This document shows positions 1 to 33,311 of a DNA stretch of 33,311 bases, one piece after another. Each line of letters opens with the position of its first letter. The first letter of the stretch is position 1. The DNA is from a virus (lineage: Duplodnaviria; Heunggongvirae; Uroviricota; Caudoviricetes), in IMG/VR virus record IMGVR_UViG_2778261498_000008, positions 1-33,311 of that record, one strand, 5' to 3'. The position numbers and the translations under genes are program-made. Below the pieces are notes generated by a model. It was not told where the DNA came from and did not search any database. It saw nothing but the letters and a program-made list of their open reading frames with translations.

Positions 1-990
1 TTATGTGGATGAAATGTGGATGCCTCCTTTTAACGGATTAAGTGAAATTGCATCCTGGAGGAAATCAGGAGCGAGGTGCGCATAGGTCATAGTTTGCTGG
101 ATCGTGGCGTGCCCCATAATTCGCTGGAGCGTAAGTATATTTCCTCCATTAATCATAAAGTGAGCAGCAAAGGTATGGCGTAGAACATGTACAGCCTGTC
201 CTTTTGGTAGGTCTGGCTTAACACTGCGAAGCACCTTGCGATATTCCTCATAATTGACGTCAAACAAAAGGCCGGATTTCTTTGTTTTGATCTCACTAAC
301 AACTTCATCAGAGACAGGAATAATTCGAACTTTTCCGTTTTTAGTTTTGTTAAACGTCACGCGATTATTGATGATGTGTTCCGCGCGCAGATTTTTCGCT
401 TCTCCCCATCTCGCCCCAGTACTGAGACAAAGTAGCGTAATCCGCCGGGCATCACCGCTTACTGCATCCAGTAATTTGGCGATTTCTTCCGTGGTGAGAT
501 ACGTCATTTCGGGTGATTTTCGTTTCAAAGAGGGGAGGGCGCGGAGCGGATTTTCTCCGTGAAATTCCCCGGCATTTGCTAGGAGTGTAAACATTCCTCC
601 GAGATCCGACTCATCACGCCGAACAGTAGACTCTTTTACTCCCAAGGATAAACGGGAGCTTCGATAAGCGGCCATGAAACGAGCATTAATCTGGCTAACC
701 CTTGGATCATTCATTTCTTTGATGATTTTTTTCAACCTGGTTAGAACGCCGTTAGCATATGGCTTATTGCGTCCACCCAATTCCCACCATAACGGAAGCA
801 GATCTGAGAGATGACGTTGCTCTGTTGGCTTTTCAAGCCATTCCTTATCGTGCATGTGGCTGAGAACATAACGCTCAAAGGCCACTGCATCTGCCTTTTT
901 CTTAAAAATCCGCTGAATCCGACGTCCACTTCGGCCACGCGGTCTAACATCCACTTTATACCGTCCACCATCGAGTGCTTTAATTGCCAT
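1..990 (-). CDS. int: Phage integrase, tyrosine recombinase (P2 Int-like)
   Basis: Product aligns end to end with P2 Int as recalled (MAIKxLDGGRY...VDxRP N-terminus; LSTGARWGEA; HxLRHTFAxHFMINGGNIxTLQRIxGH...TMxYAH C-terminal catalytic region). ATG at 988-990 chosen; the track ORF extends in frame to 1023. Confidence 0.9.
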   Translation of the reverse strand: MAIKALDGGRYKVDVRPRGRSGRRIQRIFKKKADAVAFERYVLSHMHDKEWLEKPTEQRHLSDLLPLWWELGGRNKPYANGVLTRLKKIIKEMNDPRVSQINARFMAAYRSSRLSLGVKESTVRRDESDLGGMFTLLANAGEFHGENPLRALPSLKRKSPEMTYLTTEEIAKLLDAVSGDARRITLLCLSTGARWGEAKNLRAEHIINNRVTFNKTKNGKVRIIPVSDEVVSEIKTKKSGLLFDVNYEEYRKVLRSVKPDLPKGQAVHVLRHTFAAHFMINGGNILTLQRIMGHATIQQTMTYAHLAPDFLQDAISLNPLKGGIHISST

Positions 991-1056
991 TGGCAAGCCC
1001 TCCGGTGAAACGAGGAAAGACATTTCCAGTTTGTAAAATGTAAGAATAATAAAGGG

Positions 1057-1353
1057 TTAACCAATTTTCCTTTCGGATGGGGGTAAATCCGTTGGTTCTT
1101 GCCCATAGTGTGCGAGAGCCGGAGCTATCTGCCCGGATTCAGGCGCAATTTTTCCAGTCATAAACCACAACGCATATTTCTCAAATCTGGGGTTGTTTAG
1201 TATTTGCTCAATTACTTCAGCATTAGGGATAGTTTTACCGCTTTCATATCTCCACAGAGCATCACGGTTTAAACCAAGCATTTTTGCTGTATCCGGGAGG
1301 CTAGTAAGTCTCTCGCTTTCACGCATGATTTTTATGCGCTCTCCAATAGTCAT
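1057..1353 (-). CDS. C: Immunity repressor, P2 C-like
   Basis: 98-aa product from ATG at 1351-1353 matches P2 C as recalled, including the block FxKYxLWFMTxxIAPESGQIAPALAHxGQ. Divergent from cox, adjacent to int, as in P2. Alternative start at 1359. Confidence 0.85.
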   Translation of the reverse strand: MTIGERIKIMRESERLTSLPDTAKMLGLNRDALWRYESGKTIPNAEVIEQILNNPRFEKYALWFMTGKIAPESGQIAPALAHYGQEPTDLPPSERKIG

Positions 1354-1454
1354 ACGCATGTTGCAATTCTCCAACGTCTGTATTAATGTTTATACAAATG
1401 AGTTTGATTTGGGGCATCCGTCGCAAGAAATACCCCAAACAGGGAGATTATCAC
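1354..1454. promoter_or_regulatory. Divergent C/cox switch region; 7-bp inverted repeat TTTGGGG (1408-1414) / CCCCAAA (1433-1439) is a candidate operator
   Basis: AT-rich ~100-bp spacer between divergently transcribed repressor and cox-like genes; the inverted repeat was read directly. Promoter hexamers not confidently assigned. Confidence 0.45.
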
Positions 1455-1781
1455 ATGAATGAAGAACTATTGAGGGCATTGTTTAAGATCCCAGACCCCA
1501 TCACCGTCGATGAGTTTTCCCGCCGCACAGGTAAGACCGAATCAGCCGTAAGAAAGTTGGTAGAGCGTCGACTCATCCCTCTAACTACTGAGCGCGAGGT
1601 TTTAGGCGAGGAAGGGAGTTCGCGCCGTCTTCTCATCCTTTGGAATGAGTGGCTCGAAATGGTCTATGACGCAACGAAACAGCTTCCTCCTGAGCGTAAA
1701 GATTGGCGCAATCACTGGCTTAAGAAAGCCAAGAAGCTGGCGGAAGATTTGGGATTAGGCTTTCTTAATTTTGCTGCATGA
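1455..1781 (+). CDS. cox: Cox-like excisionase / early transcriptional regulator
   Basis: First gene of the rightward early operon; ATG 1455 preceded by AGGGAG; product shares the P2 Cox pattern as recalled (EFxxxxGKxxxAVRxxxxxxxxP...W...W). Longer than P2 Cox. Confidence 0.7.
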   Translation: MNEELLRALFKIPDPITVDEFSRRTGKTESAVRKLVERRLIPLTTEREVLGEEGSSRRLLILWNEWLEMVYDATKQLPPERKDWRNHWLKKAKKLAEDLGLGFLNFAA

Positions 1782-1799
1782 GATGCAGGGAGTTTTGAT

Positions 1800-2141
1800 A
1801 TGAAACAGCAACGTAATTCACGCTTTCGTAATGGTGCTGAACGCCACGCTAACCGTTTCGCTACCAGTGCATCACGCAGCAACATCCGCTACAGCCTGAG
1901 TGATACACACGCAACGCCGGATGGCTACCCAGTAAAACAAATCGGCGAGCATGCCTGGCTGATTGAGAAAGCTGGAATCGTGGTCCACAAATGCCCACGC
2001 AATCCGTTTACCGGAAACCGCATTTTTGCATTGAGCTGCGGCGACAATCAATTCGGGCAGGATTTCACATTATACGAAGCACTTCGCACGGTTGATCGTC
2101 TGCTTCGTGGGCAAAGTTTTATTAAACAGGCTGATTTATAA
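1800..2141 (+). CDS. Hypothetical early protein (orf78/B region of P2-like early operon)
   Basis: ATG ORF of 113 aa with AGGGAG upstream, in the early operon on the coding strand; no family recognised by eye. Confidence 0.5.
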   Translation: MKQQRNSRFRNGAERHANRFATSASRSNIRYSLSDTHATPDGYPVKQIGEHAWLIEKAGIVVHKCPRNPFTGNRIFALSCGDNQFGQDFTLYEALRTVDRLLRGQSFIKQADL

Positions 2142-2151
2142 CAGGTGCTTT

Positions 2152-2430
2152 ATGACCAAAGAGCATGCACAAGGTGTATTTATCCGTTTTATTGATTTTC
2201 GCGGTGAACTGTTATTACGCGCATCAGCCATTGACGGAGTTGTTCCATCCGAAAAAAACGCAGCTACTTACGTTTATCTGAACGGTACGCGCCTGACTGT
2301 GGAGCTTCCGTACCAGACCGTGCGAGAAATCATTAGCGAAGCTGAAAAGGCACGTCAGGTTAATGGCGATGAACCATATATCGAAATTATTTGTATGGAT
2401 TCAGAAGCTGAAATTCAGAAAGCAGATTAA
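2152..2430 (+). CDS. Hypothetical early protein
   Basis: 92-aa ORF from ATG 2152 (track ORF starts earlier at 2092 but overlaps the previous gene); tightly packed in the early operon. Confidence 0.45.
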   Translation: MTKEHAQGVFIRFIDFRGELLLRASAIDGVVPSEKNAATYVYLNGTRLTVELPYQTVREIISEAEKARQVNGDEPYIEIICMDSEAEIQKAD

Positions 2431-2441
2431 AGGGCGTTGCG

Positions 2442-2684
2442 ATGGGCAAAGAATATAAAACTCTCATTAACAAAGCACTTGAACGATTTTATTTTCGCTT
2501 AAGTGCATCAGGCGCTCATGCTGAACGTGCAGCCCGTGACTCATTGACCAGGGCAATCCGGAGTTTGTATGACGTCGCTTTTTACGCTGATGATCTGGAT
2601 GCACTTAACGAACTTTCCGAGCTGATCTGTGCCGCAGAATGCGGGGAACATATTGAACCGTATAAGCTGGGGAATATCGCATGA
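2442..2684 (+). CDS. Hypothetical early protein
   Basis: 80-aa ATG ORF, 11 bp after the previous stop, same strand. Confidence 0.5.
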   Translation: MGKEYKTLINKALERFYFRLSASGAHAERAARDSLTRAIRSLYDVAFYADDLDALNELSELICAAECGEHIEPYKLGNIA

Positions 2685-2794
2685 GTATATTTATCTCATG
2701 GCTTGTTCTGATTATTTCGGTGGCCTGCGCCATTGGGATTATGCGAATTATTCATTCAGTAAAAAAGATTGAACGCTTTTTCACTGGCGAATAA
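2681..2794 (+). CDS. Candidate small hydrophobic peptide (37 aa, MSIFISWLVLIISVACAIGIMRIIHSVKKIERFFTGE)
   Basis: ATG at 2681 overlaps the upstream stop as ATGA (translational coupling); single predicted transmembrane helix. Below the 60-aa track cutoff, found by eye. Confidence 0.3.
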   Translation: MSIFISWLVLIISVACAIGIMRIIHSVKKIERFFTGE

Positions 2795-2880
2795 CAGAGC
2801 AAATAAAACCACAGGTTAAATAAGAAAATGTAAAAACAATCCGCATTCGCGGAGGTATTCGCACACGCCAAGGAGGCGTA

Positions 2881-3084
2881 ATGGCAATTAAGCATTTTCC
2901 TGTCGTTCGTTTTACCTCCAGAGGACGTGAATACGAAGTCGATGAACGCCTGATTACCACAATCGACAAACACCGTTCAGAAAAGGATGCACATCACATC
3001 TATCTCACTGACGGCACTTACTTCTGCGCCACGAATGTGGTGCGGGTGAACCTTATCCGACAGGTACAGGAGTCACGCAGATGA
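2881..3084 (+). CDS. Hypothetical early protein (67 aa)
   Basis: ATG preceded by strong SD AAGGAGG; stop overlaps next start. Confidence 0.55.
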   Translation: MAIKHFPVVRFTSRGREYEVDERLITTIDKHRSEKDAHHIYLTDGTYFCATNVVRVNLIRQVQESRR

Positions 3085-3326
3085 CCATTCTGGACTATAT
3101 CGCCGCCAATCCGGGGTGTAGTGGTGGAGAAATCGCCGCAGCACTGAATACCCCAACCACAGCCATTAATGCGGAGTTACGCCGACTCTGGCGCAGCGGT
3201 TCAGTCATAAGAAAAGAACGCAAAACAGGCGGTCGCTTTTCTTACCAGATAAACCCGATGCCGTTCGGGTGCGGCAATCCACTTACCAACATGTTTAACC
3301 AGCTACTGAAGGAAGCCAGAGCATGA
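3081..3326 (+). CDS. Hypothetical early protein (81 aa), possible small DNA-binding protein
   Basis: ATGA-coupled to the upstream gene; no motif verified. Confidence 0.5.
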   Translation: MTILDYIAANPGCSGGEIAAALNTPTTAINAELRRLWRSGSVIRKERKTGGRFSYQINPMPFGCGNPLTNMFNQLLKEARA

Positions 3327-3622
3327 ACGCCATCAACCTCCAGGAATTACGCGAACTGGCGATTGACCTGCAACGAATGGCAACGCATCAAAAATTACTG
3401 GCGTTTCGCGCAATGCTCTCGCCGTCTGCCGTGCTGGCACTGCTGGATGAGCTGGAGCACGCCAGAACCATGTCTCCAGCCATTCGCCTGGCGCTTCATC
3501 ATGAAATCGCTGATTTCTGCGCACCACTGGGTTCGCCTGGTGAACCAGAAACGCCGGAAGCAATGCAACGAGAGCTACTGCAACGCATCGACAAGGTTTT
3601 TGATTTCTTCCTTAACCAGTAA
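3323..3622 (+). CDS. Hypothetical early protein (99 aa)
   Basis: ATGA-coupled ORF in the early operon; no family recognised. Confidence 0.5.
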   Translation: MNAINLQELRELAIDLQRMATHQKLLAFRAMLSPSAVLALLDELEHARTMSPAIRLALHHEIADFCAPLGSPGEPETPEAMQRELLQRIDKVFDFFLNQ

Positions 3623-3633
3623 AGGACCGCGAT

Positions 3634-3837
3634 ATGAACAAAAAGACCTGGTTTCGCGCATACATGTGGGCGCTGGTATGCGTCCTCGTTTCTCTCATTC
3701 TGTATGCAGGACTACTCCCCCGAATGATTTCATCAGACAGCTCCTTCCTGGTATTGCTGGGCATTTTCATTGCCATGCTGTACCCGGCAGGCGTTGTTCG
3801 CCTTTTCAGTAAGTACATCAAGGAAATCAAACAATGA
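3634..3837 (+). CDS. Small integral membrane protein (67 aa, two predicted TM helices)
   Basis: ATG 3634 with AAAGGA upstream; two hydrophobic stretches; stop overlaps the start of the next gene (ATGA at 3834-3837). Confidence 0.55.
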   Translation: MNKKTWFRAYMWALVCVLVSLILYAGLLPRMISSDSSFLVLLGIFIAMLYPAGVVRLFSKYIKEIKQ

Positions 3838-4664
3838 AGAAATTCAAACTCTTTCAGATTCTCCCGCTTTTTGCTGCCATCCTGCTGGTTGGTTGCGATC
3901 GCGTTGAGCCAGGTAATGTGGGCATCAAAGTCAACAAACTGGGCGACGACAAAGGCGTCGGTGAAGTGGTTGGCGTTGGCCGCTACTGGACAGGCTGGAA
4001 TACAGAGGTTTACATCTTCCCAACCTTCAAACAAATGAAGACCTACGATGAGCCGTTCAGCTTTCAGATGAGTGACGGCACAACCATCGGCTATCACATC
4101 GGTGTGGCCTACAAGGTTGATCCATCCAAAGTTACTACAGTGTTTCAGACCTACCGCAAAGGCGTGGATGACATTACCGACACTGACCTGCGCCAGAAGA
4201 TCGCCGACGCACTCAACCGACTGGCCAGTAAAATGACCACCGATAAATTTATCGACGGTGGCAAGTCTGAACTGCTGGATTCAGCACTTAAAGACATTCA
4301 GGCAGAAATGACACCTATCGGCATTCAGGTAATGAGCCTCTCTTATGTCGGTAAACCGGAATACCCACCAACCGTTATCGACAGCATTAATGCCAAAGTC
4401 ACGGCAAACCAGAAAACTCTGCAACGCGAACAGGAAGTCAAGCAGCGCGAAGCAGAAGCCAACATGCTACGCGCAGAAGCAGCCGGACAGGCTGATGCCA
4501 TTCGCACAAAAGCCCAGGCTGAAGCCGACGCCATTCGTTTGCGCGGTGAAGCTCTGCGCCAGAACCCCGGCGTTATGGAGCTGGAAGCTATCAACAAATG
4601 GAACGGCACGCTGCCGCAATACATGACCAGTAATACCGCTGTTCCGTTTGTTCCGGTGAAGTAA
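3834..4664 (+). CDS. Lipoprotein with SPFH/band-7-like domain and C-terminal Ala/Glu-rich coiled coil
   Basis: N-terminus MKKFKLFQILPLFAAILLVGC has a signal peptide and lipobox (LVGC); the C-terminal REAEANMLRAEAAGQADAIRTKAQAEADAIR tract resembles the EA-repeat coiled coil of HflK/HflC/flotillin-type proteins. Domain assignment is by pattern recognition only. Confidence 0.75.
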   Translation: MKKFKLFQILPLFAAILLVGCDRVEPGNVGIKVNKLGDDKGVGEVVGVGRYWTGWNTEVYIFPTFKQMKTYDEPFSFQMSDGTTIGYHIGVAYKVDPSKVTTVFQTYRKGVDDITDTDLRQKIADALNRLASKMTTDKFIDGGKSELLDSALKDIQAEMTPIGIQVMSLSYVGKPEYPPTVIDSINAKVTANQKTLQREQEVKQREAEANMLRAEAAGQADAIRTKAQAEADAIRLRGEALRQNPGVMELEAINKWNGTLPQYMTSNTAVPFVPVK

Positions 4665-4670
4665 TTAAAC

Positions 4671-4715
4671 CCGGCCAGTGGAAACCGCTGGCCGGAGCAG
4701 CATCAGGATTTTTTA
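4671..4715 (+). terminator. Hairpin CCGGCCAG/CTGGCCGG followed at a distance by a T6 run
   Basis: 8-bp perfect stem (4671-4678 / 4688-4695) directly after the lipoprotein stop; the T-run is ~13 nt downstream, so not a canonical intrinsic terminator. Confidence 0.4.
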
Positions 4716-4810
4716 GTATGCCGTTCTCACAAAAAAACCGCTTGCCATGCCGCAATCAGTCAGGTTACATTTCCGCTGCACCTCATAAAACGGGTGCCGG
4801 GATTTCCACC

Positions 4811-4852
4811 CCGCTGACTATACACGCGCACAACCGCGCCAGCGGTTTTTTT
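4811..4852 (+). terminator. GC-rich hairpin (CCGCTG...CAGCGG with inner GCGC stem) followed immediately by T7
   Basis: Read directly: stem 4811-4816 / 4840-4845, then TTTTTTT at 4846-4852. Looks like an intrinsic terminator or the 3' end of a small RNA. Confidence 0.5.
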
Positions 4853-5031
4853 GTGCGTACCGTATCGCCACGTCTTTTTCGCGTCAGAATTATGGTGGGG
4901 CGTATGGGGCCGACTTCGGTCGGGCCGGGTTCGTGTATAGCCGGTTGTGGAAACCCTGTACGTCTCACCACCCCGAGTTTTCCACCTCTGGATGGTGAGT
5001 TTTCAAAACTTACTATACACGAGGCCACACC

Positions 5032-5262
5032 ATGGCAAACCGCAAACAGCACCGCGCTATCGCGGAGCGTCGTCACATCCAGACTGAAATCAACCGCAGA
5101 CTTTCCCGCGCATTCCGCGTCGCTAAAATCATGCACATCAATATGCTGCATGAGCGTAGCTGCGAACTTTCAAACCTCTATTCATCCGCTGTTTTCAGCT
5201 ATCTGGCGGATGATCTGCGCGAGCTTCAGCAGCTCATCCAGCAGCAAAACAAACTCCATTAA
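5032..5262 (+). CDS. Hypothetical basic protein (76 aa)
   Basis: ATG ORF after the long structured intergenic region; Arg/Lys-rich N-terminus; function unknown. Confidence 0.5.
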   Translation: MANRKQHRAIAERRHIQTEINRRLSRAFRVAKIMHINMLHERSCELSNLYSSAVFSYLADDLRELQQLIQQQNKLH

Positions 5263-5334
5263 TTCCTGTTCCGGGCCTTTCCTGCACCTTGCGGCGGGAG
5301 GCCTTCGCACATCTGTAGTAAAGAGAATTGCAGC

Positions 5335-5724
5335 ATGATTGACGCTCATGACTTCACAAGATGGGTGCGCACACAGGACACCCGTCTGGCTCCCGTTCTT
5401 CAGGGATTATTTGATCTTTACATCCGTGGTCGTGACAACAGAGCACGCACTACAAAACCGGAGAATGCGGACACCCTTTATTTCACAGTAGACGACTGCT
5501 ACCGCGTGGACTTCACACCACACGGGCTGGCGTTGCACTGCCTGACACCACACGGCGAATCACTGCTGGCGTATTACGACTCCCCGGCCTCCGTATTCGC
5601 GGCAATGCTGGCGCATCGCACTGCTGGCGGGTGTGCCTCGCTGAGTGAATACACCGCTGAATTTAACCGCCTTTCCGCCATCTTCTCGCAGGAGTGGCAG
5701 CGCGTGACGGGATACCAGCCATGA
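5335..5724 (+). CDS. Hypothetical protein (129 aa) immediately upstream of, and coupled to, gene A
   Basis: Stop overlaps the A start (ATGA at 5721-5724). Confidence 0.5.
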   Translation: MIDAHDFTRWVRTQDTRLAPVLQGLFDLYIRGRDNRARTTKPENADTLYFTVDDCYRVDFTPHGLALHCLTPHGESLLAYYDSPASVFAAMLAHRTAGGCASLSEYTAEFNRLSAIFSQEWQRVTGYQP

Positions 5725-8528
5725 GCGAGTTTGCATGGAGCTGGAATGAACCACGGCCAGCCATTGATCCGGCCAGATTTACGGAGCGCAGGCAGGAAAC
5801 TGAAACCGACCTGCAACGCGCCATCCGTTACTACCTTGAGGCGGACAAAAGGGCACAGGAAGAACAGGAAGCGAAGGAAGAAGCCTTTTTCGCACAATCC
5901 GCCATGGGTAAAAAACTCATGGCATCCCTTGAGGAAGCCGGACAGCGTGAAAAGCTGGCACAGAGCATCATCAGTAAGCGCCGGGCAACAGAACAAGACC
6001 CGGTAGCCCGTGCCTTTGCCACACTAAAGGCACTACCTGTTTATCTGCGTGAACCACTGAGCCGCCACCTCTCTTTCCTGCGCAAAAAACAGGAAGCCGA
6101 TCGCCAGAAAGGTAAAAAGAGCTGGCAGGCGGAACGCTATGCACGCGGACCCCTGCGCAAAATATTCGAACGTCTGGATCGCACTGACGGACGCTGGCTG
6201 ACACCGGGTTATCGCTCCCTTGCCGGGCGCGAACGCCTGGACGATTTGCTTTACCTGCCGCAGCTCAACAAGCACCAGATACAGACGCTGGCCACCATGA
6301 CCGCGGCGATGTTCAGCAGCACCTTCGAAACACTCTGCGATGGCTTTGGTGCCAGAGATGGCGAGCTGACCATGGATGTAATGTTGAAGGCTTACCGGAT
6401 GCTGGCTCGTATCGCATTACGCCTGCACATCATGCCGCCACATTACGAAGCCCTGAACAAGAGCGAACCGGATACGGAACTGCTGCCGGGCGCAATCCTT
6501 CGCCTGACCTGTGCGGACTGGTGGAAACGCAAACTGTGGCTGTTACGTTGCGAGTGGAGAGAAGAACAACTCCGCGCCGCCTGTCTGGTTTCCAGAAAAA
6601 CATCGCCTTATCTGAGCCAGGACGCGTTAAGCGAGTTTCGCGCACAGCGCGAGAAAACACGCGATTTCCTGAAAAGTTTCATGCTGGAAAACGAAGACGG
6701 GTTCACGATTGATCTCGAGACAGTGTATTACGCGGGAGTAAGTAACCCGGTTCACCGTAAGGCAGAAATGATGGCCACCATGAAGGGGCTGGAACTTCTG
6801 GCCGAAGCCCGTGGTGACAAAGCGGTGTTTCTGACTGTCACCTGCCCGTCAAAATACCACGCAACAACGGAGAACGGTCATCCGAACCCCAAATGGAACG
6901 GGGCCACCATGCGCGACTCCAGCGACTACCTGGTTAACACGTTTTTTGCGGCGGTCCGCAAAAAACTGAACCGCGACGGCCTGCGCTGGTATGGCATCCG
7001 CACGGTGGAGCCTCACCATGACGGCACCGTACACTGGCATATGATGGTCTTTGCCCATCCGGAAGAAATCGACACCATTGTGTCCCACACCCGCGATATT
7101 GCCATTCAGGAAGATCGTCACGAGCTGGGCGATGATATTACTCCGCGCTTTAAGGCGGAGTATGTAGACGGCTCAAAAGGCACGCCAACCAGCTACATCG
7201 CCACCTACATCGGAAAGAACCTGGACAGCCGCGCCGCGGATGGCATCGACCCGAAAACGGGCAAACCACGCGTTGACCACGAAACCGGAAAATCAATGGC
7301 CGAGAGCGTGGAGCGCGCCATCGGCTGGGCGCGCCTTCACCGGGTCCGCCAGTTCCAGTTCTTTGGCATCCCCTCCCGTCAGGTGTGGCGTGAACTCCGC
7401 CGCCTTGCCAGCCAGATGGCACGCAACCCGGAAGGCCCGCAACGGCTGAAGGATGACGCAATGGATGCGGTACTCGCTGCCGCTGATGCCGGATGTTTTG
7501 CCACCTATATAGAGAAACAGGGCGGCGTACTTGTTCCACGCAAGGACTACCTGATTCGCACCGCCTACGACCTCGCCGATGAGCTGAACGATTACGGCGA
7601 ACAGAGCGTACAGATTTACGGGATCTGGTCACCACTCATCGGGGAATCCTCCCGTGTGTGCACGCATCCGGATAACTGGAAGCTGGTAAGACGTAAACCG
7701 GAAGCGGAAGACAGCGCCCGCGAAAATGGTTTTGACCTTCAGGGCGGCCCTGCCGCCCCTTGGACTCGTGGCAATAACTGTCCCCGTGTACAGGAAACGG
7801 ACAACAACGGGACAGAACAGCCGGAAGAACGGTCAGCACCGTGGCCGCAGCTCCCTGACGGCGTTGAAGTGAACGAATGGATGCGCTCACTGAAACGGCA
7901 CGAACGCCGGGCGCTGATGCGTTCGCTTCGGCTTCGTGACAAACAGGCAAAAAACAGCAGTGATGAAATGCAGAGCTGGACACAGAGCCGCAAACAGCAG
8001 CGGCCTTTGCCTGATAACCACGAATTACTCGCTAAAGAATGGCGGGAATCTGCCGAATCTCTCGGCCTGCATATCGGTGAACAGCAGATGCAGCACCTGT
8101 TACGGGGCGGCAGCCTGTACGTTGACGGCAGCATCATTGCACCGCAGGGATTTGAAATTGTACGCAAACCGGATACCCGCCCGGACAGCCGAATCACGCA
8201 GCTCTGGCAGCGCCTGAGCCGTAATCACGGCGTAAGCAGCACAGAGATCCGCCATAACCCGGTCGCCAGCTATCTGGAACAACTGGGGGCATCAGACCCC
8301 GAAGCCGCCGCACGTCTGGCATCCACACTTCAGCAGGACCAGAACACCATGAAAACCCCCGTTACCGTGCTTTCTGACATGTTGCGCGCCATCCGTGACG
8401 CAGAGCACGCACAGAGAATCAGTGAAACCACTGAGCGCGCCCACCGCAAAGCAGACCTGCTGCGGGGTAGCCTGACCAGTGGAAACAAAAAAACAGACAG
8501 AAACGGGATTCACAAATCCCGTAAATGA
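5721..8528 (+). CDS. A: Rolling-circle replication initiation endonuclease (P2 gpA family)
   Basis: Contains an HUH-type metal-binding motif (HWHMMVFAHP) and a tandem-tyrosine segment (SYIATYIGKN) typical of gpA-type nickases; sits after the early operon as in P2. ATG 5721 chosen over the upstream in-frame track start (5694). Confidence 0.9.
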   Translation: MSEFAWSWNEPRPAIDPARFTERRQETETDLQRAIRYYLEADKRAQEEQEAKEEAFFAQSAMGKKLMASLEEAGQREKLAQSIISKRRATEQDPVARAFATLKALPVYLREPLSRHLSFLRKKQEADRQKGKKSWQAERYARGPLRKIFERLDRTDGRWLTPGYRSLAGRERLDDLLYLPQLNKHQIQTLATMTAAMFSSTFETLCDGFGARDGELTMDVMLKAYRMLARIALRLHIMPPHYEALNKSEPDTELLPGAILRLTCADWWKRKLWLLRCEWREEQLRAACLVSRKTSPYLSQDALSEFRAQREKTRDFLKSFMLENEDGFTIDLETVYYAGVSNPVHRKAEMMATMKGLELLAEARGDKAVFLTVTCPSKYHATTENGHPNPKWNGATMRDSSDYLVNTFFAAVRKKLNRDGLRWYGIRTVEPHHDGTVHWHMMVFAHPEEIDTIVSHTRDIAIQEDRHELGDDITPRFKAEYVDGSKGTPTSYIATYIGKNLDSRAADGIDPKTGKPRVDHETGKSMAESVERAIGWARLHRVRQFQFFGIPSRQVWRELRRLASQMARNPEGPQRLKDDAMDAVLAAADAGCFATYIEKQGGVLVPRKDYLIRTAYDLADELNDYGEQSVQIYGIWSPLIGESSRVCTHPDNWKLVRRKPEAEDSARENGFDLQGGPAAPWTRGNNCPRVQETDNNGTEQPEERSAPWPQLPDGVEVNEWMRSLKRHERRALMRSLRLRDKQAKNSSDEMQSWTQSRKQQRPLPDNHELLAKEWRESAESLGLHIGEQQMQHLLRGGSLYVDGSIIAPQGFEIVRKPDTRPDSRITQLWQRLSRNHGVSSTEIRHNPVASYLEQLGASDPEAAARLASTLQQDQNTMKTPVTVLSDMLRAIRDAEHAQRISETTERAHRKADLLRGSLTSGNKKTDRNGIHKSRK

Positions 8529-8601
8529 GCAAAAAACGTGCCGCGATATATGAAGCGCGCACAAAACAGGCAAAAGCGGGATTTAAAAATCCTGTAAACG
8601 A
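8504..8601. repeat. Two copies of a ~25-bp dyad element (CGGGATTcacaaATCCCGTAAATGA at 8504-8528; CGGGATTtaaaaATCCTGTAAACGA at 8577-8601); candidate parC-like centromere/operator
   Basis: Read directly; copies are 73 bp apart, straddle the A stop codon and lie just upstream of the parM-like gene. Only two copies, so the centromere assignment is tentative. Confidence 0.35.
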
Positions 8602-8629
8602 TTAATTAATCAACATAAGGAAAAGCGAC

Positions 8630-9589
8630 ATGAAAATTCACATCGACGACGGCTCCACCAACATCAAGCTGGCATGGACTGAGAACGGCGAACGCCGCAA
8701 CGCCATCAGCCCGAACAGCTTCAAGTCGGAATGGTCTGCGCCGTTCGGTGGCACGCAGCCCGCGAACTACATGCTTGATGGCGTGCGCTATGGTTTTGAT
8801 CCGGTCAGCGATCGCTTTGTCCAGACGACCGACACGCAATACCAATACAGCGATGTGAATGTCATTGCCATTCATCACGCGCTGGTCAAATCAGGCATCA
8901 CGCCACAGGAGGTGGATGTGGTTGTCACCCTGCCACTGAGCGAGTATTTCGACACAAACGCACAGCCGGACATGGCCAACATCAACCGCAAAAAAGCGAA
9001 CGTTATGCGCCCGGTGGAGTACCAGAACGGCGAAGCATTCACTATCCGTAACGTGCGGGTTATGCCTGAATCCATTCCGGCTGGCTTTAAGGCACTGGCT
9101 GACATGAGTCCGTTTGAATCCCTGCTGATTGTGGATTTGGGCGGAACCACGCTGGATGTGGCAAAAGTTCAGGGGCAACTGGCAGGTATCAGCCAGGTGT
9201 TTTGCGATCCACACGTAGGCGTTTCTCTGATGGCCGATGCCGTACTGTCGGTGATGGCCACTAACGGTATGCGCACCAGTCACCACATCGCCAATACCAT
9301 TATCGAACATCGCCATGATGAAGCCTGGCTGCGCCAGCACATCCACAATGACGCGCATTACGCCAGCCTGATGGCGGTTATTCGTGAAAAGGAAGAAACA
9401 CTGAAACAACGCGTGATCCGCGCGCTGGCGGGTTTTTCGGGTTACGGGCGGGTGATGGTTGTCGGTGGCGGGGCGGAGATTGTGGCACCCGCTATCCGCG
9501 AAGCCTGCGGAGTTAATGCGAATTTCATCGCGGACGGGGTGCCACAGTTTGCTCTGGTTAATGGGCTGTACGCAATGGACAAGGAGTAA
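8630..9589 (+). CDS. parM: Actin-like segregation ATPase, ParM/StbA family
   Basis: N-terminus MKIHIDDGSTNIKLAW...ISPNSFK...YSDVNVIAIHHAL and later VMPESIPAG, LIVDLGGTTLDV and VMVVGGGAE closely parallel plasmid R1 ParM as recalled; AAGGAAAAG SD upstream. Confidence 0.85.
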   Translation: MKIHIDDGSTNIKLAWTENGERRNAISPNSFKSEWSAPFGGTQPANYMLDGVRYGFDPVSDRFVQTTDTQYQYSDVNVIAIHHALVKSGITPQEVDVVVTLPLSEYFDTNAQPDMANINRKKANVMRPVEYQNGEAFTIRNVRVMPESIPAGFKALADMSPFESLLIVDLGGTTLDVAKVQGQLAGISQVFCDPHVGVSLMADAVLSVMATNGMRTSHHIANTIIEHRHDEAWLRQHIHNDAHYASLMAVIREKEETLKQRVIRALAGFSGYGRVMVVGGGAEIVAPAIREACGVNANFIADGVPQFALVNGLYAMDKE

Positions 9590-9593
9590 ACCA

Positions 9594-9905
9594 ATGACGA
9601 CTCCAACCAGACGGATAAGTTTCTATCTGAAGCCCGCCGCCGTCAAGAACGAAGGCGAAGCATGCGCCTGGCTGGACAGCCTTACACCAGAAGCCCGCAA
9701 AAGCGGCCAACGCGTGGCTTTTCTGGCCGGGCTGGCACTTCTGAAAATGAATCCAGCAGAGGCTTACCGACTGGCTGCATGGGCTGACGATGAGGCGTTA
9801 TCGGTGACACAAACCAGGACAGAACGCCCCGTGTCACAGCCAGTACCAACCACACAGATAACCAGTCAGATGGCAGGGAATATCCGGGCATTATTTCCTG
9901 AATGA
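9594..9905 (+). CDS. parR: ParR/StbB-like centromere-binding adaptor
   Basis: 4 bp after the parM stop with AAGGAG SD; product shares the R1 ParR pattern as recalled (RRISFYLKP..., LDS, AFLAGLALL, C-terminal IRALFPE versus R1 ILRSLFPKE). Confidence 0.65.
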   Translation: MTTPTRRISFYLKPAAVKNEGEACAWLDSLTPEARKSGQRVAFLAGLALLKMNPAEAYRLAAWADDEALSVTQTRTERPVSQPVPTTQITSQMAGNIRALFPE

Positions 9906-9965
9906 CGAATTTGACGGCTTTTAATTTTATCGGGGTGCACTGTCGCCCCGCGCGAGGAAAACACG

Positions 9966-10490
9966 ATGAAAAAATACGAATACATGCTAATGAAAGAAGC
10001 ACTGCGGGCTGGTCTGGCTCCCTGTCCTGTATCCGTAGAAGCTGTTGTTGGGAACACGATTTTCCGAACGCTGCGAAATCGCGTATCCGTGAAGATGATT
10101 CACCAACCACCCAAATCTACCAGCATGATCTATCTGCCGCTGCCCGAGGCTATCAAACTTATGCGTTCGCTGAAATTTGCGATTTGGATGCAGACACAAC
10201 TCAACAAAGCGGTGCAAAACACCTTCGTTAAGAAACTGATGCCGGAGCTTGCTGCCAGATGTGCAAAATGTACCAGACCCGCACTTCAATTTGATCTGTC
10301 ATTGATTCAACAAGCTACGGAGGCAGAACTGTACCGCCTGTCACCTCTCCATGATGCTCACACGGAAGCCTCAGAAATGTTCCGGCTCATGTTTCAATTT
10401 AATTTTGCCGTTCGACGCACACGCATTCAGGTCAATCGCATGATGCAGGCGCAGGAAGAGCTGACGCAACACAAAGGAGGCAACCAGTGA
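9966..10490 (+). CDS. Hypothetical protein (174 aa), accessory
   Basis: ATG 9966 with AGGAAA upstream; no recognisable family by eye. Confidence 0.5.
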   Translation: MKKYEYMLMKEALRAGLAPCPVSVEAVVGNTIFRTLRNRVSVKMIHQPPKSTSMIYLPLPEAIKLMRSLKFAIWMQTQLNKAVQNTFVKKLMPELAARCAKCTRPALQFDLSLIQQATEAELYRLSPLHDAHTEASEMFRLMFQFNFAVRRTRIQVNRMMQAQEELTQHKGGNQ

Positions 10491-10662
10491 GCAAAATTGA
10501 CTATCAGGCATTACGCGAGGCGGCACAAAACTATCAATCGACGCTGGCGTGGTATGAGGTTGACGCGGGCTAGTTTTGCCGCAAGGATAATTCGTTTCAG
10601 CGGGTGATTTTTTGCGCTATCATTCCGGCAGTGGTTCACGATTATTGGCAGGAAAGGCAATT

Positions 10663-11256
10663 ATGAGCAGTAAAAAAAATAAAATAACATCTATGGCCGC
10701 AGCGCTGGCGGTGGCTCTCGCCCCTGTTCCTGCCAGTAGCATTGTGCATCATGACTTATCAATCTCCCGGCACAGTACGTCTACGCTATCCCTCCAGGAC
10801 GTAAAGGATTCTGTGGCATACCTTCCTATTGATGAGGCCACCAGTTATATGCTTAACCTGGCTGATAGGATGAAGACACACAGGGCAAACCTTCGCATCG
10901 AATGGGAAGAAAAGCAGATCCCTATTATTCTGAAAAATCAGAAAAAAGAGACTCAGGAAGGGTTTGAAAGCCTTTTCCGTCATATTGCGGTATGTGCAAG
11001 TTTTGTCGAGGCTGCAAGGGTTGCGCTGAAAAGCGTACCTGAAAGTAACGCGGAACTGAGAAAAGAGATTGTCGCTTTTGCTCGTTCCGCTGCGACGCTC
11101 CGCTATACGATTGAAGATATTTTATCCTTCATTGAAAGCACGCATGTGCCGAAGAAAACTTCAGATGCTGATCTGGGTGTTACCGCCGATCAGGTTCGCG
11201 CACTTATCCGCAGTGAACATAAAAAGCTGGGCCTTAAAGATCCAACGTTCCATTAA
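10663..11256 (+). CDS. Hypothetical protein (197 aa) with signal-peptide-like N-terminus; putative partner of the downstream toxin homologue
   Basis: ATG 10663 preceded by AGGAAAGG; N-terminus MSSKKNKITSMAAALAVALAPVPASS has a positive n-region, hydrophobic core and a VPA-S cleavage-like site. The track ORF starts 51 nt earlier without an SD. The region is visibly more AT-rich than the phage backbone. Confidence 0.5.
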   Translation: MSSKKNKITSMAAALAVALAPVPASSIVHHDLSISRHSTSTLSLQDVKDSVAYLPIDEATSYMLNLADRMKTHRANLRIEWEEKQIPIILKNQKKETQEGFESLFRHIAVCASFVEAARVALKSVPESNAELRKEIVAFARSAATLRYTIEDILSFIESTHVPKKTSDADLGVTADQVRALIRSEHKKLGLKDPTFH

Positions 11257-11265
11257 GGCAGGGCC

Positions 11266-11646
11266 ATGATTAAAGTCTCTGTCCACAATGACATAGAACT
11301 CCCCGCAGTTGCTCGTAAATATGCACATGCTTTGCAGTCATGGAAAAACGGCGGATCTTTACCCTCAGTCTTTGGCAACGAAGGGCAGTGGGAAGATAGC
11401 GGGCGTCTTCGTGATTCTTTTGTTTTTAAGATTCACATTCGTTTACCTGATGAACAGCCGTGGCCTGCAAAGCTACCTGCCGCCTCGCGTAAATCAAACA
11501 GTTATCTTGTTTACTCCCGCCATTTCTTATATCCAGATAAGTATCAGCTAATCAGCATTATGACACCCAATGCGCATGAGTTAGCCCGTACATCCTACAT
11601 GGCAGAAATTGAGCGCAGAGCAGAAGAGTTCCAGTCTTCTTTTTGA
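11266..11646 (+). CDS. YafO-family toxin homologue (ribosome-dependent mRNA interferase family)
   Basis: 126-aa product matches E. coli YafO as recalled in several blocks: LPSVFGNEG vs LPDIFGRD; HIRLPDEQPWPAKLPAASRKSNSYLVYSRH vs HIHLANENNPFPPQLRQFSRTNDEAHLVYCQG; C-terminal LISIMTPNAHELAR...AEEF vs LLIAILKPEPHKLAR...AEAF. 9 bp after the upstream gene. Confidence 0.7.
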   Translation: MIKVSVHNDIELPAVARKYAHALQSWKNGGSLPSVFGNEGQWEDSGRLRDSFVFKIHIRLPDEQPWPAKLPAASRKSNSYLVYSRHFLYPDKYQLISIMTPNAHELARTSYMAEIERRAEEFQSSF

Positions 11647-11684
11647 GTTTTGCGACGACTATCTATCAATCCCTTACTAATCTG

Positions 11685-11718
11685 AAAAGCTGCCTTTTGA
11701 AGGCGGCTTTTCTTTCTT
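11685..11718 (+). terminator. Intrinsic terminator (AAAAGCTGCC / GGCGGCTTTT stem, T-rich tail)
   Basis: 10-bp stem (one G-U pair) with 7-nt loop followed by CTTTCTT; flanked by A-run and T-run so could act in both directions. Confidence 0.6.
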
Positions 11719-11737
11719 CCTGGCCTTCTTTCTCTGT

Positions 11738-11764
11738 TGCACAATAGTGCACAAATTTGCACAA
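11738..11764. repeat. Three direct TGCACAA repeats phased at exactly 10 bp (11738, 11748, 11758)
   Basis: Read directly; helical phasing suggests a protein-binding array in the region expected to hold cos and packaging signals. Confidence 0.4.
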
Positions 11765-12188
11765 TTTTTTTGAACGACTTTTTACCCTTCCGGCCCGCAT
11801 GGCGGCTGGATCCGTCAAGGATCCGTGCGCGCACAAAAAAACGCGCTTTTTCTGCGCGCAGGTGACGGGGGAACAGCCCGCGTTTCTGGGGGTAAATAGC
11901 GTTCCCTTAACGATGTCGCAGCGACACGACAGAATGGCCGTATTTCTCACGCTGAGCGTGAAAAATACGTGAGGGATTCTGGTTTGATGGGGTGAAAGGT
12001 AAGGCCGTCAAAATCGCACTGAGGCGGCGAGAACATGCAGTCAGCGCAGTGGGATTGCGTAAGAATCTGACCGTCGATGATGGCAATAAGCAGGAAAGCA
12101 TCGTGAAATTATCTGACTGATACAGGAGCTGGAGAGTCGGGGCATAAATTTTTTATGCCCCGGCGAAGCAGCAGACAAGCGAAGCGCG

Positions 12189-32980: not shown

Positions 32981-33040
32981 CAGGCAGAATTGCCGGAGTA
33001 ACAAAAAAGCGATAGATTACGCGCGGGTGCCTTTCGGCTG

Positions 33041-33304
33041 ATGGTCGGAGGGAATACCCGAAGGCCGGATGTGGAAAGGCCCCGGAAAACATTTCTGTTT
33101 AACCGAGGCCCTAACCGCATTACCTTGACAAGTGAAAGGTTAGCGCCTCTCCGGAAAAGGAGCAAGTGCTATGTCGCAAAAATCGCTTACGGCCATCACG
33201 TTCTGCGTGACGGCAATCCTCATCATCTGGATGCTGCATGGTTCGCTGTGCGAAATACGGATGAGCTTCTGGGGAGCGGAGTTTGCGGCGTTCTTACAGT
33301 GTAA
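33041..33304 (+). CDS. Candidate mok-like overlapping reading frame
   Basis: ORF that starts upstream of the hok-like gene and overlaps it in another frame, ending 7 nt before the hok stop, as in hok/mok/sok loci. The true start is unknown. Confidence 0.35.
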   Translation: MVGGNTRRPDVERPRKTFLFNRGPNRITLTSERLAPLRKRSKCYVAKIAYGHHVLRDGNPHHLDAAWFAVRNTDELLGSGVCGVLTV

Positions 33305-33311
33305 GCAGTAA
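33171..33311 (+). CDS. hok: Hok/Gef-family type I toxin (46 aa)
   Basis: MSQKSLTAITFCVTAILIIWMLHGSLCEIRMSFWGAEFAAFLQCKQ has a single TM helix followed by the SLCEIR and E(F/V)AAF signature of Hok/Gef peptides. The stop codon is the last three bases of the window. Confidence 0.8.
   Translation: MSQKSLTAITFCVTAILIIWMLHGSLCEIRMSFWGAEFAAFLQCKQ

Follow-up and report, generated by a model that had tools for sequence, protein, structure and literature searches.

A ParMRC-type partition operon as a resident module of P88-like, integrating P2-type phages

On the low-copy plasmids R1 and R100, the ParMRC partition locus (parA/stbAB) is ordered as a cis site, parM and parR, and the cis sites lie immediately upstream of parM. 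Partition loci with actin-like ATPases have also been described on elements that are normally part of a chromosome. SrpMRC stabilises the transient excised form of the SXT/R391 integrative and conjugative elements (ICEs) from a centromere of four 13-bp repeats (Carraro et al. 2015, PMC4489591), and AlpAC, encoded by the integrated C. glutamicum prophage CGP3, connects the circular DNA of the phage to actin-like filaments, and efficient replication requires it (Donovan et al. 2015, PMC4446434). Here we analysed the parMR operon of the IMG/VR virus record IMGVR_UViG_2778261498_000008, whose whole stretch of 33,311 nucleotides (hereafter the window) makes up a whole temperate phage genome of the P2 type, cut gene to gene, with int at the left and a Hok/Gef toxin gene at the right. 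Judging from sequence comparison, the phage has the parts that ParMRC-type segregation calls for, and they are under selection, among them the motif by which ParR would contact ParM. The reading we lean to, from the sequence and from analogy with the systems above, is that this ParMRC most likely partitions or positions the phage genome while it is a transient circle, following infection or excision, and stable plasmid maintenance is probably not its role. The features on which this rests are the following.

1-1023, minus strand: tyrosine integrase (Pfam Int_N, E 5.6e-23; Phage_integrase, E 3.7e-17)
5694-8528, plus strand: gene A (gpA), rolling-circle replication endonuclease (Pfam Phage_GPA, E 1.7e-130)
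8490-8528, plus strand: repeat 1, putative parC/operator, with the dyad ACGGGATT-caca-AATCCCGT at 8503-8522
8563-8601, plus strand: repeat 2, putative parC/operator, with the dyad GCGGGATT-taaa-AATCCTGT at 8576-8595
8630-9589, plus strand: parM, 319 aa, directly 3′ of gene A
9594-9905, plus strand: parR (stbB), 103 aa

An earlier note, made from the letters of this DNA alone, had described a ParM-family ATPase and a ParR-like adaptor in one operon behind two dyads; both genes and both dyads were found where it had put them, and its end coordinate, 9905, was right. The true start of parR was the ATG at 9594, the program-made open reading frame (ORF) having begun at a TTG at 9459. The further claim, that this is a plasmid-type partition locus inside an integrase-carrying P2-like prophage, was borne out by the Pfam assignments, the alignment to R1 and the integrase, which together identify a genuine type II ParM/ParR operon in such a prophage.

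ParM matched both Pfam domains far above their cut-offs (StbA_N, E 6e-82; ParM C-terminal domain, E 2e-68) and belongs to PHROG 691, "partition protein". Its residues 2-316 align with the R1 ParM crystal structures 1MWK, 5AEY and 4A62 (E 6e-93), with about 55% identity to R1 ParM over the full length. The earlier note had made its case depend on the actin-fold nucleotide-binding residues, and these are intact on the alignment: IDDGSTNIK, MPESIPAG, DLGGTTLD and GGGAE are identical between the window ParM and R1 ParM, while DDGST, PESIPAG, DLGGTTLD and GGGA are invariant in eight diverged ParMs of the phage clade described below. The protein is thereby an actin-fold ATPase of type II, with phosphate-1, connect, phosphate-2 and adenosine motifs. 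Population statistics were taken from IMG/VR, where the viral contig scan gave 80 near-identical E. coli loci, a set that serves allele counts and not deep comparison; a genome contig scan with a single ParM query gave three near-identical loci only. A full 319-codon parM was present in all 74 IMG/VR loci that had the anchor sequence, and the median dN/dS of ParM was about 0.1 (68 alleles, with the window allele as reference). Defective ParMs are nevertheless found in large protein clusters, one frameshifted to 229 aa (649 members) and another truncated to 188 aa (555 members), and since truncated alleles have lasted in large lineages, a lysogen can do without ParM.

The downstream protein fits a ribbon-helix-helix ParR, as the note had proposed. 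It matched Pfam Plasmid_stab_B (PF10784, E 1.6e-24), the ParR/StbB family, and is a member of PHROG 2515. Its N-terminal 56 residues match R100 ParR (BLASTP E 2e-8) with 34% identity, and a profile built from 23 phage ParRs had as its top PDB match the ribbon-helix-helix protein ParR of pB171 (2JD3, E 0.0018, residues 9-74). A single-sequence phmmer search of ParR against the PDB gave no match. The AF2 monomer, of low confidence (pLDDT 57), had helices at 20-29, 32-52, 54-61 and 87-100 and left the N-terminal strand unresolved, as we would expect of a fold that forms only in the dimer; a Foldseek search of this low-confidence model against the PDB also gave no match. A small adaptor with an N-terminal ribbon-helix-helix directly 3′ of parM is the second type II feature of the locus.

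ParR is laid out as a ribbon-helix-helix N-terminus, a linker that is hypervariable and, at the C-terminus, the conserved tail NIxxLFPE, and it varies as a mosaic. Residues 1-19 do not vary, the helical part divides into classes that are only 56% identical, the linker (residues ~65-92) is hypervariable and the tail is fixed, which differs from ParM, 98-99% conserved among alleles. The DNA-reading strand RRISFYLKP and the dyads are likewise invariant among alleles. In phage homologues that are otherwise 31-56% identical, N-x-x-x-L-F-P at the C-terminus does not change, and a (K/R)(K/Q)N(A/I)xxL(F/I)(P/N) tail is conserved in all of them and in R100 ParR (tail KKNAMKLIN). In the R1 ParM-ParR peptide structure 4A62, the ParR tail is the part that plugs into ParM, and by sequence the phage tail would correspond to it. 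Because the tail is invariant despite 31-56% identity elsewhere, the ParR-ParM contact appears to be under selection, and not DNA binding only. We also considered incompatibility as a driver of ParR diversification. It was not supported: two pairs of co-resident prophages were examined (n=2 pairs), and within each pair the ParR class and the dyads were the same.

The cis region consists of a 39-nt direct repeat in two copies, 73 bp apart and 82% identical, both of which hold the dyad CGGGATT-N4-AATCCCG with arms of 8+8 nt and a 4-nt centre. Repeat 1 reaches over the end of gene A, namely its final 13 codons and the stop, and dyad 2 ends 34 nt 5′ of the parM start codon. At one mismatch or fewer, CGGGATTNNNNAATCCCG occurs in the 33.3-kb window at these two places only, where about 0.01 occurrences per window would be expected by chance (our own arithmetic). 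The earlier note had suggested looking for further iterons upstream; no extra copy of the dyad was found elsewhere in the window, leaving two sites and no iteron array. In 50 distinct upstream sequences of relatives the CGGGA/TCCCG cores are fixed, and what varies is chiefly the centre of dyad 2 and outer arm positions. A conserved ATTAATCAA box at 8605-8613, spotted by eye about 20 nt 5′ of the parM start, may be a -10 element, and the loci of Hafnia and Plesiomonas have a homologous CGGG..N..CCC element with ATTAATCAA after it. Between gene A and parM, promoter scoring gave no sigma-70 consensus site, and no plus-strand intrinsic terminator was found between 8300 and 8630. The repeats themselves are not the same everywhere: in the Plesiomonas locus a 26-nt repeat of another sequence stands twice at a spacing of 72 bp, the first copy lying over the end of gpA, and the Serratia and Enterobacter loci have inverted arms of 14-20 nt, 26-28 nt apart, upstream of parM. 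Paired elements are thus present 5′ of parM in every subclade, and since the pairing is constant while the repeat sequence changes with ParR, the pairs fit candidate adaptor sites.

Compared with R1 and R100, the phage locus keeps the order of cis site, parM and parR and the position of the cis sites, the same nucleotide-binding motifs in ParM, and homology to R100 ParR in both the ribbon-helix-helix part and the C-terminal tail. It differs in its carrier, an integrating P2-type phage, in the length of ParR (103 aa versus 116-117 aa), in that the phage ParMs form their own clade, and in the cis region, two dyads 73 bp apart versus two blocks of ~11-bp direct iterons around the promoter in R1/R100, so that the phage sites do not amount to a classical parC. 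SrpMRC resembles it in way of life, being a ParM-type partition locus on an integrase-bearing, normally chromosomal carrier that stabilises the transient excised circle only, as is proposed here, and the circle is replicated in both cases by a rolling-circle initiator (TraI there, gpA here), with few repeats in the centromere (a putative one here) and a toxin-antitoxin back-up. However, SrpM is distant from R1 ParM and SrpR has no homology to ParR, whereas both proteins here are clear R1-type homologues, and SrpMRC belongs to a conjugative element and has an experimentally shown function, whereas the present locus is that of a virus known from sequence. AlpAC with its site alpS is likewise an actin-like ATPase and a DNA-binding adaptor of an integrated prophage; the repeats that the adaptor binds lie within its own promoter region, expression is early after induction and the system acts on circular phage DNA. 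It differs in having the adaptor gene first, in AlpC, a distant actin-like protein without dynamic instability, and in its Gram-positive host and unrelated phage type. With its integrase, its actin-like ATPase and adaptor, and candidate adaptor sites in their own upstream region, the window element has the make-up of the SrpMRC/AlpAC type.

The only deposited phage outside the present group with a ParM homologue is the P1-like phage-plasmid D6, whose protein, annotated as a StbA-type stability protein, is 48% identical. D6 and P1 live obligately as plasmid prophages, have plasmid replicons and are not known to integrate into the chromosome; the window element differs from them in having an integrase and in being chromosomal in practice.

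The element itself is P88-like (Xuanwuvirus, Peduoviridae). Fourteen deposited phage records, each Xuanwuvirus or P88-like, have the locus at 94-98% identity, among them P88, P884B11, 520873, 503458, PhiR44_2, Shae_phiSM and Chuche, and the P88 map has the same gene order as the window. ParM and a partition protein are already annotated in those records. Rousset et al. (2022, PMC9122126), who analysed the gpA-gpQ interval in 18,150 E. coli P2-like prophages, found a putative partition system there in about one quarter of the P2-like phages of E. coli and had already raised the idea of extrachromosomal maintenance, and Magaziner et al. (2019) list the gene as fitness cargo. Since the locus has been both annotated and remarked on in print, its novelty is low.

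In 5426 complete E. coli genomes, the locus was found in 1303, with 1451 copies, of which 1449 were chromosomal and 2 were on plasmids. About one quarter of E. coli genomes thus carry the operon, which may be the most abundant ParMRC system in the species. Beyond this species, ParMs of 54-63% identity occur in P2-like prophages of Plesiomonas, Hafnia, Serratia and Enterobacter, and the order gpA-parM-parR-cargo-portal was retained in all relatives checked, namely prophages of Escherichia/Citrobacter/Salmonella, Plesiomonas, Hafnia, Serratia and Enterobacter. When about 100 homologues were placed in a neighbour-joining tree (no bootstrap), the phage ParMs formed one clade apart from plasmid ParMs, including R100 ParM; the ParMs of 49-50% identity that were examined belonged to an ICE-like element and to a plasmid-like region borne on a chromosome. 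The earlier note had suggested that the phage could have captured a plasmid stability cassette. As a recent event this is not supported, given the synteny across at least five genera, with ParM identity down to 54%, and the separate ParM clade; parMR is an old, selected phage module of one Peduoviridae lineage.

Three further occurrences were recorded. In a degraded prophage of E. coli O157:H7 TX 376-2 (positions 1251-5428), the gpA-adjacent parM and parR are intact and the stretch from portal to tail has given way to other DNA next to an IS3 remnant. In the degraded phage 520873, the parM and parR ORFs are intact, and the split genes include int, gpA and tail genes. A 97% identical copy of the enterobacterial phage locus lies on a 226-kb contig whose genome bears the label Vagococcus sp. 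WN89Y, a Firmicute, which is probably contamination or a mislabelled assembly.

The right end of the window carries a second stability locus.

33025-33184, plus strand: sok/hok-leader-like RNA (Rfam RF01794, 46.2 bits, E 2e-9; sub-threshold, the gathering score being 59)
33171-33311, plus strand: Hok/Gef toxin, 46 aa (PF01848, 29.9 bits, cut-off 22)

This hok/sok-type locus (33025-33311) is a second plasmid-style stabilisation module, outside the parMR operon, so that the phage carries homologues of both stability loci of R1, parMRC and hok/sok. The hok/gef gene occupies the same position in P88 and in pZ1323PEC0009-2, a circular record discussed below.

P2-type phages replicate by gpA-initiated rolling-circle replication, which yields circular monomers, and since this is so, the phage is physically a plasmid after infection or excision. 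gpA is also the only replication function detected in the window. Because parMR lies directly 3′ of gene A on the same strand with no terminator between them, ParM and ParR would be made together with the replication proteins. ParR dimers would then bind the two dyads just upstream of parM, and the C-terminal tails of ParR would, by homology to R1, capture the ends of ATP-ParM filaments, whose growth would push paired circular phage genomes apart. The operon would thus act on the free circle and leave the integrated prophage alone. Two benefits would most likely follow. Copies would be present in both daughter cells before integration or after a non-lethal excision, which would prevent curing, with hok/sok as a back-up, and replicating genomes would be spread out, which would make replication efficient. 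By its position at the dyads, ParR would probably also autoregulate (repress) the operon.

Partition of the free phage circle accords with the intactness of ParM, the synteny, the near-exclusively chromosomal copies and the integration of PhiSM, a carrier of the locus whose lysogens are integrated at pdxB in E. coli K-12 (PMC6456863). The hok/sok-type locus fits selection against loss of the element, and the sharing of ParR and dyads by co-resident prophages, which would be a problem for true plasmids and is none for integrated elements, favours the same reading. Several points weigh on the other side. We found no binding, filament, stability or other functional studies of the locus in the literature. 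With two sites only and about 53 bp of non-repeat DNA between them, a canonical ring or superhelical segrosome is not obviously possible, and since no consensus promoter was detected, the timing of expression follows from gene order only. Partition is not obviously needed by high-copy lytic replication, and the module is absent from P2, 186 and most other phages with gpA, this ParM being present in 14 of the 382 phage records with a gene A homologue. Finally, dyad 1 on the minus strand also resembles an intrinsic terminator.

If the excised or incoming circle is indeed stabilised, temperate phages, like ICEs, would actively manage a plasmid-like phase, which would bear on lysogenisation efficiency, on prophage curing and on the already blurred boundaries between phages, ICEs and plasmids. 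The locus would in that case also offer a natural two-site minimal centromere for a well-understood motor.

A neighbouring explanation is that the operon organises the lytic cycle only, in the manner of AlpAC, with filaments that position or transport replicating phage DNA and no role in inheritance or prophage stability. The operon's place in the early transcription unit, next after the replication gene, would suit this, and CGP3 offers a precedent (PMC4446434). However, ParM is a close homologue of R1 ParM, a protein known for the bipolar pushing of plasmid pairs, and the co-occurring hok/sok points to selection against loss. We regard a purely lytic role as possible but unlikely; it overlaps largely with the partition of the free circle that we prefer, and sequence does not separate the two.

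It is somewhat less probable still that P88-like phages are facultative phage-plasmids, which either integrate or persist for generations as low-copy circles by means of gpA, ParMRC and hok/sok. This corresponds to the earlier note's proposal of extrachromosomal maintenance, which is weak. In its favour are the presence of homologues of both R1 stability loci, the fact that Rousset et al. (PMC9122126) also raised the possibility, and a single phage-sized circular record, pZ1323PEC0009-2 (34,461 bp), a complete P88-like genome with int, parMR and hok. However, a phage 99.9% identical to this record is chromosomal in a sister strain of its host. Most of the other "plasmid" matches in PLSDB were chromosome-sized or very large records, or carried chromosomal genes beside the integrase, as in the example in which aroF-tyrA-pheA adjoins int (L098). 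The record of "phage 520873" proved to be a linear, in-silico excision of a defective prophage with a host yecA fragment and many split genes. Both these PLSDB matches and 520873 were accordingly rejected as evidence of an episome. The ratio of chromosomal to plasmid copies in complete E. coli genomes (1449 to 2) and the integrated PhiSM lysogens also speak against a phage-plasmid, no theta-type plasmid replicon was seen, rolling-circle replication by gpA should be repressed in lysogens, and co-resident copies share ParR and dyads. With an integrase, chromosomal copies and an integrating PhiSM, the element does not fit the P1, N15 or SSU5 type of phage-plasmid. Were the proposal true, a latent phage-plasmid would be present in about one quarter of E. 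coli strains, and ParM filaments would be a general tool by which an integrating virus controls its own inheritance.

We see little likelihood that the operon is hotspot cargo of the gpA-gpQ interval aimed at others, by partition incompatibility with related phages or incoming plasmids or by defence, and that ParR is mainly a regulator. The locus does lie on the margin of the defence hotspot known in P2 (PMC9122126), beside variable cargo that includes a YafO-type toxin, and the middle of ParR is mosaic and fast-evolving while ParM is highly conserved. Unlike true hotspot cargo, however, parMR is fixed in position and conserved across genera, PADLOC gave zero matches, and the RRISFYLKP strand and the dyads do not vary among alleles. 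Cross-talk with IncF plasmids is also unlikely, because ParR is only 34% identical to R100 ParR and the dyads are unlike the R100 parC iterons.

Least probable of all is that the dyads are not a centromere but RNA or transcription elements, for instance tandem minus-strand terminators of antisense or late read-through, or sites of another phage or host protein, with the real ParR sites elsewhere or lost: dyad 1 does form a terminator-like hairpin with a T-rich tail on the minus strand (-10.2 kcal/mol, z -3.1), and the repeated 39-nt unit includes that T-rich tail, but dyad 2 of the window folds no better than shuffles on that strand (z 0.2), the Plesiomonas repeats keep their position and 72-bp spacing although the first folds no better than shuffles (the second does fold, -18.4 kcal/mol, z -2.3), no minus-strand gene ends nearby (the end of the portal gene is 3.6 kb off), and variation at the dyad centres with fixed CGGGA/TCCCG cores is what is expected of protein sites.

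The remaining genes and RNAs of the window are those of a P2-type phage with additional cargo.

Between int and gene A: the C and Cox regulators
3834-4664, plus strand: SPFH/Band-7 domain protein (PF01145, E 8e-31; PHROG 200, "lipoprotein"), early region
4718-5338: Ash-family ORF, just upstream of gene A
4778-4852, plus strand: isrK Hfq-binding RNA (Rfam, 63.5 bits, above the gathering score)
4888-4975, plus strand: C4 antisense RNA (Rfam, 77.3 bits, above the gathering score)
9906-12188: region of variable cargo, flanked by parR and the portal gene; it is the P2 defence hotspot already known
9966-10490 and 10612-11256: two ORFs without family match, 5′ of the YafO-family toxin
11266-11646: YafO-family toxin (PF13957, E 2e-27)
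To the right of the cargo region: P2-type portal, terminase, capsid and gpD genes

The counterpart of the SPFH/Band-7 gene in P88 is annotated as a lipoprotein or a serine protease. Both RNA matches, isrK and C4, overlap the Ash-family ORF, and the region looks like an antisense immunity element of the P1/P7 type in a P2-type phage. In the cargo region, where the PADLOC search gave zero matches for the ORFs of 9906-12188, relatives carry different genes at the same place, such as HicAB, a KAP NTPase and a ClpX-like zinc finger. At the int-distal end of pZ1323PEC0009-2 (positions 110-1076), Com and a Mom-like DNA methyltransferase adjoin hok, and this pair is DNA-modification cargo of the Mu type in the second P2 hotspot.

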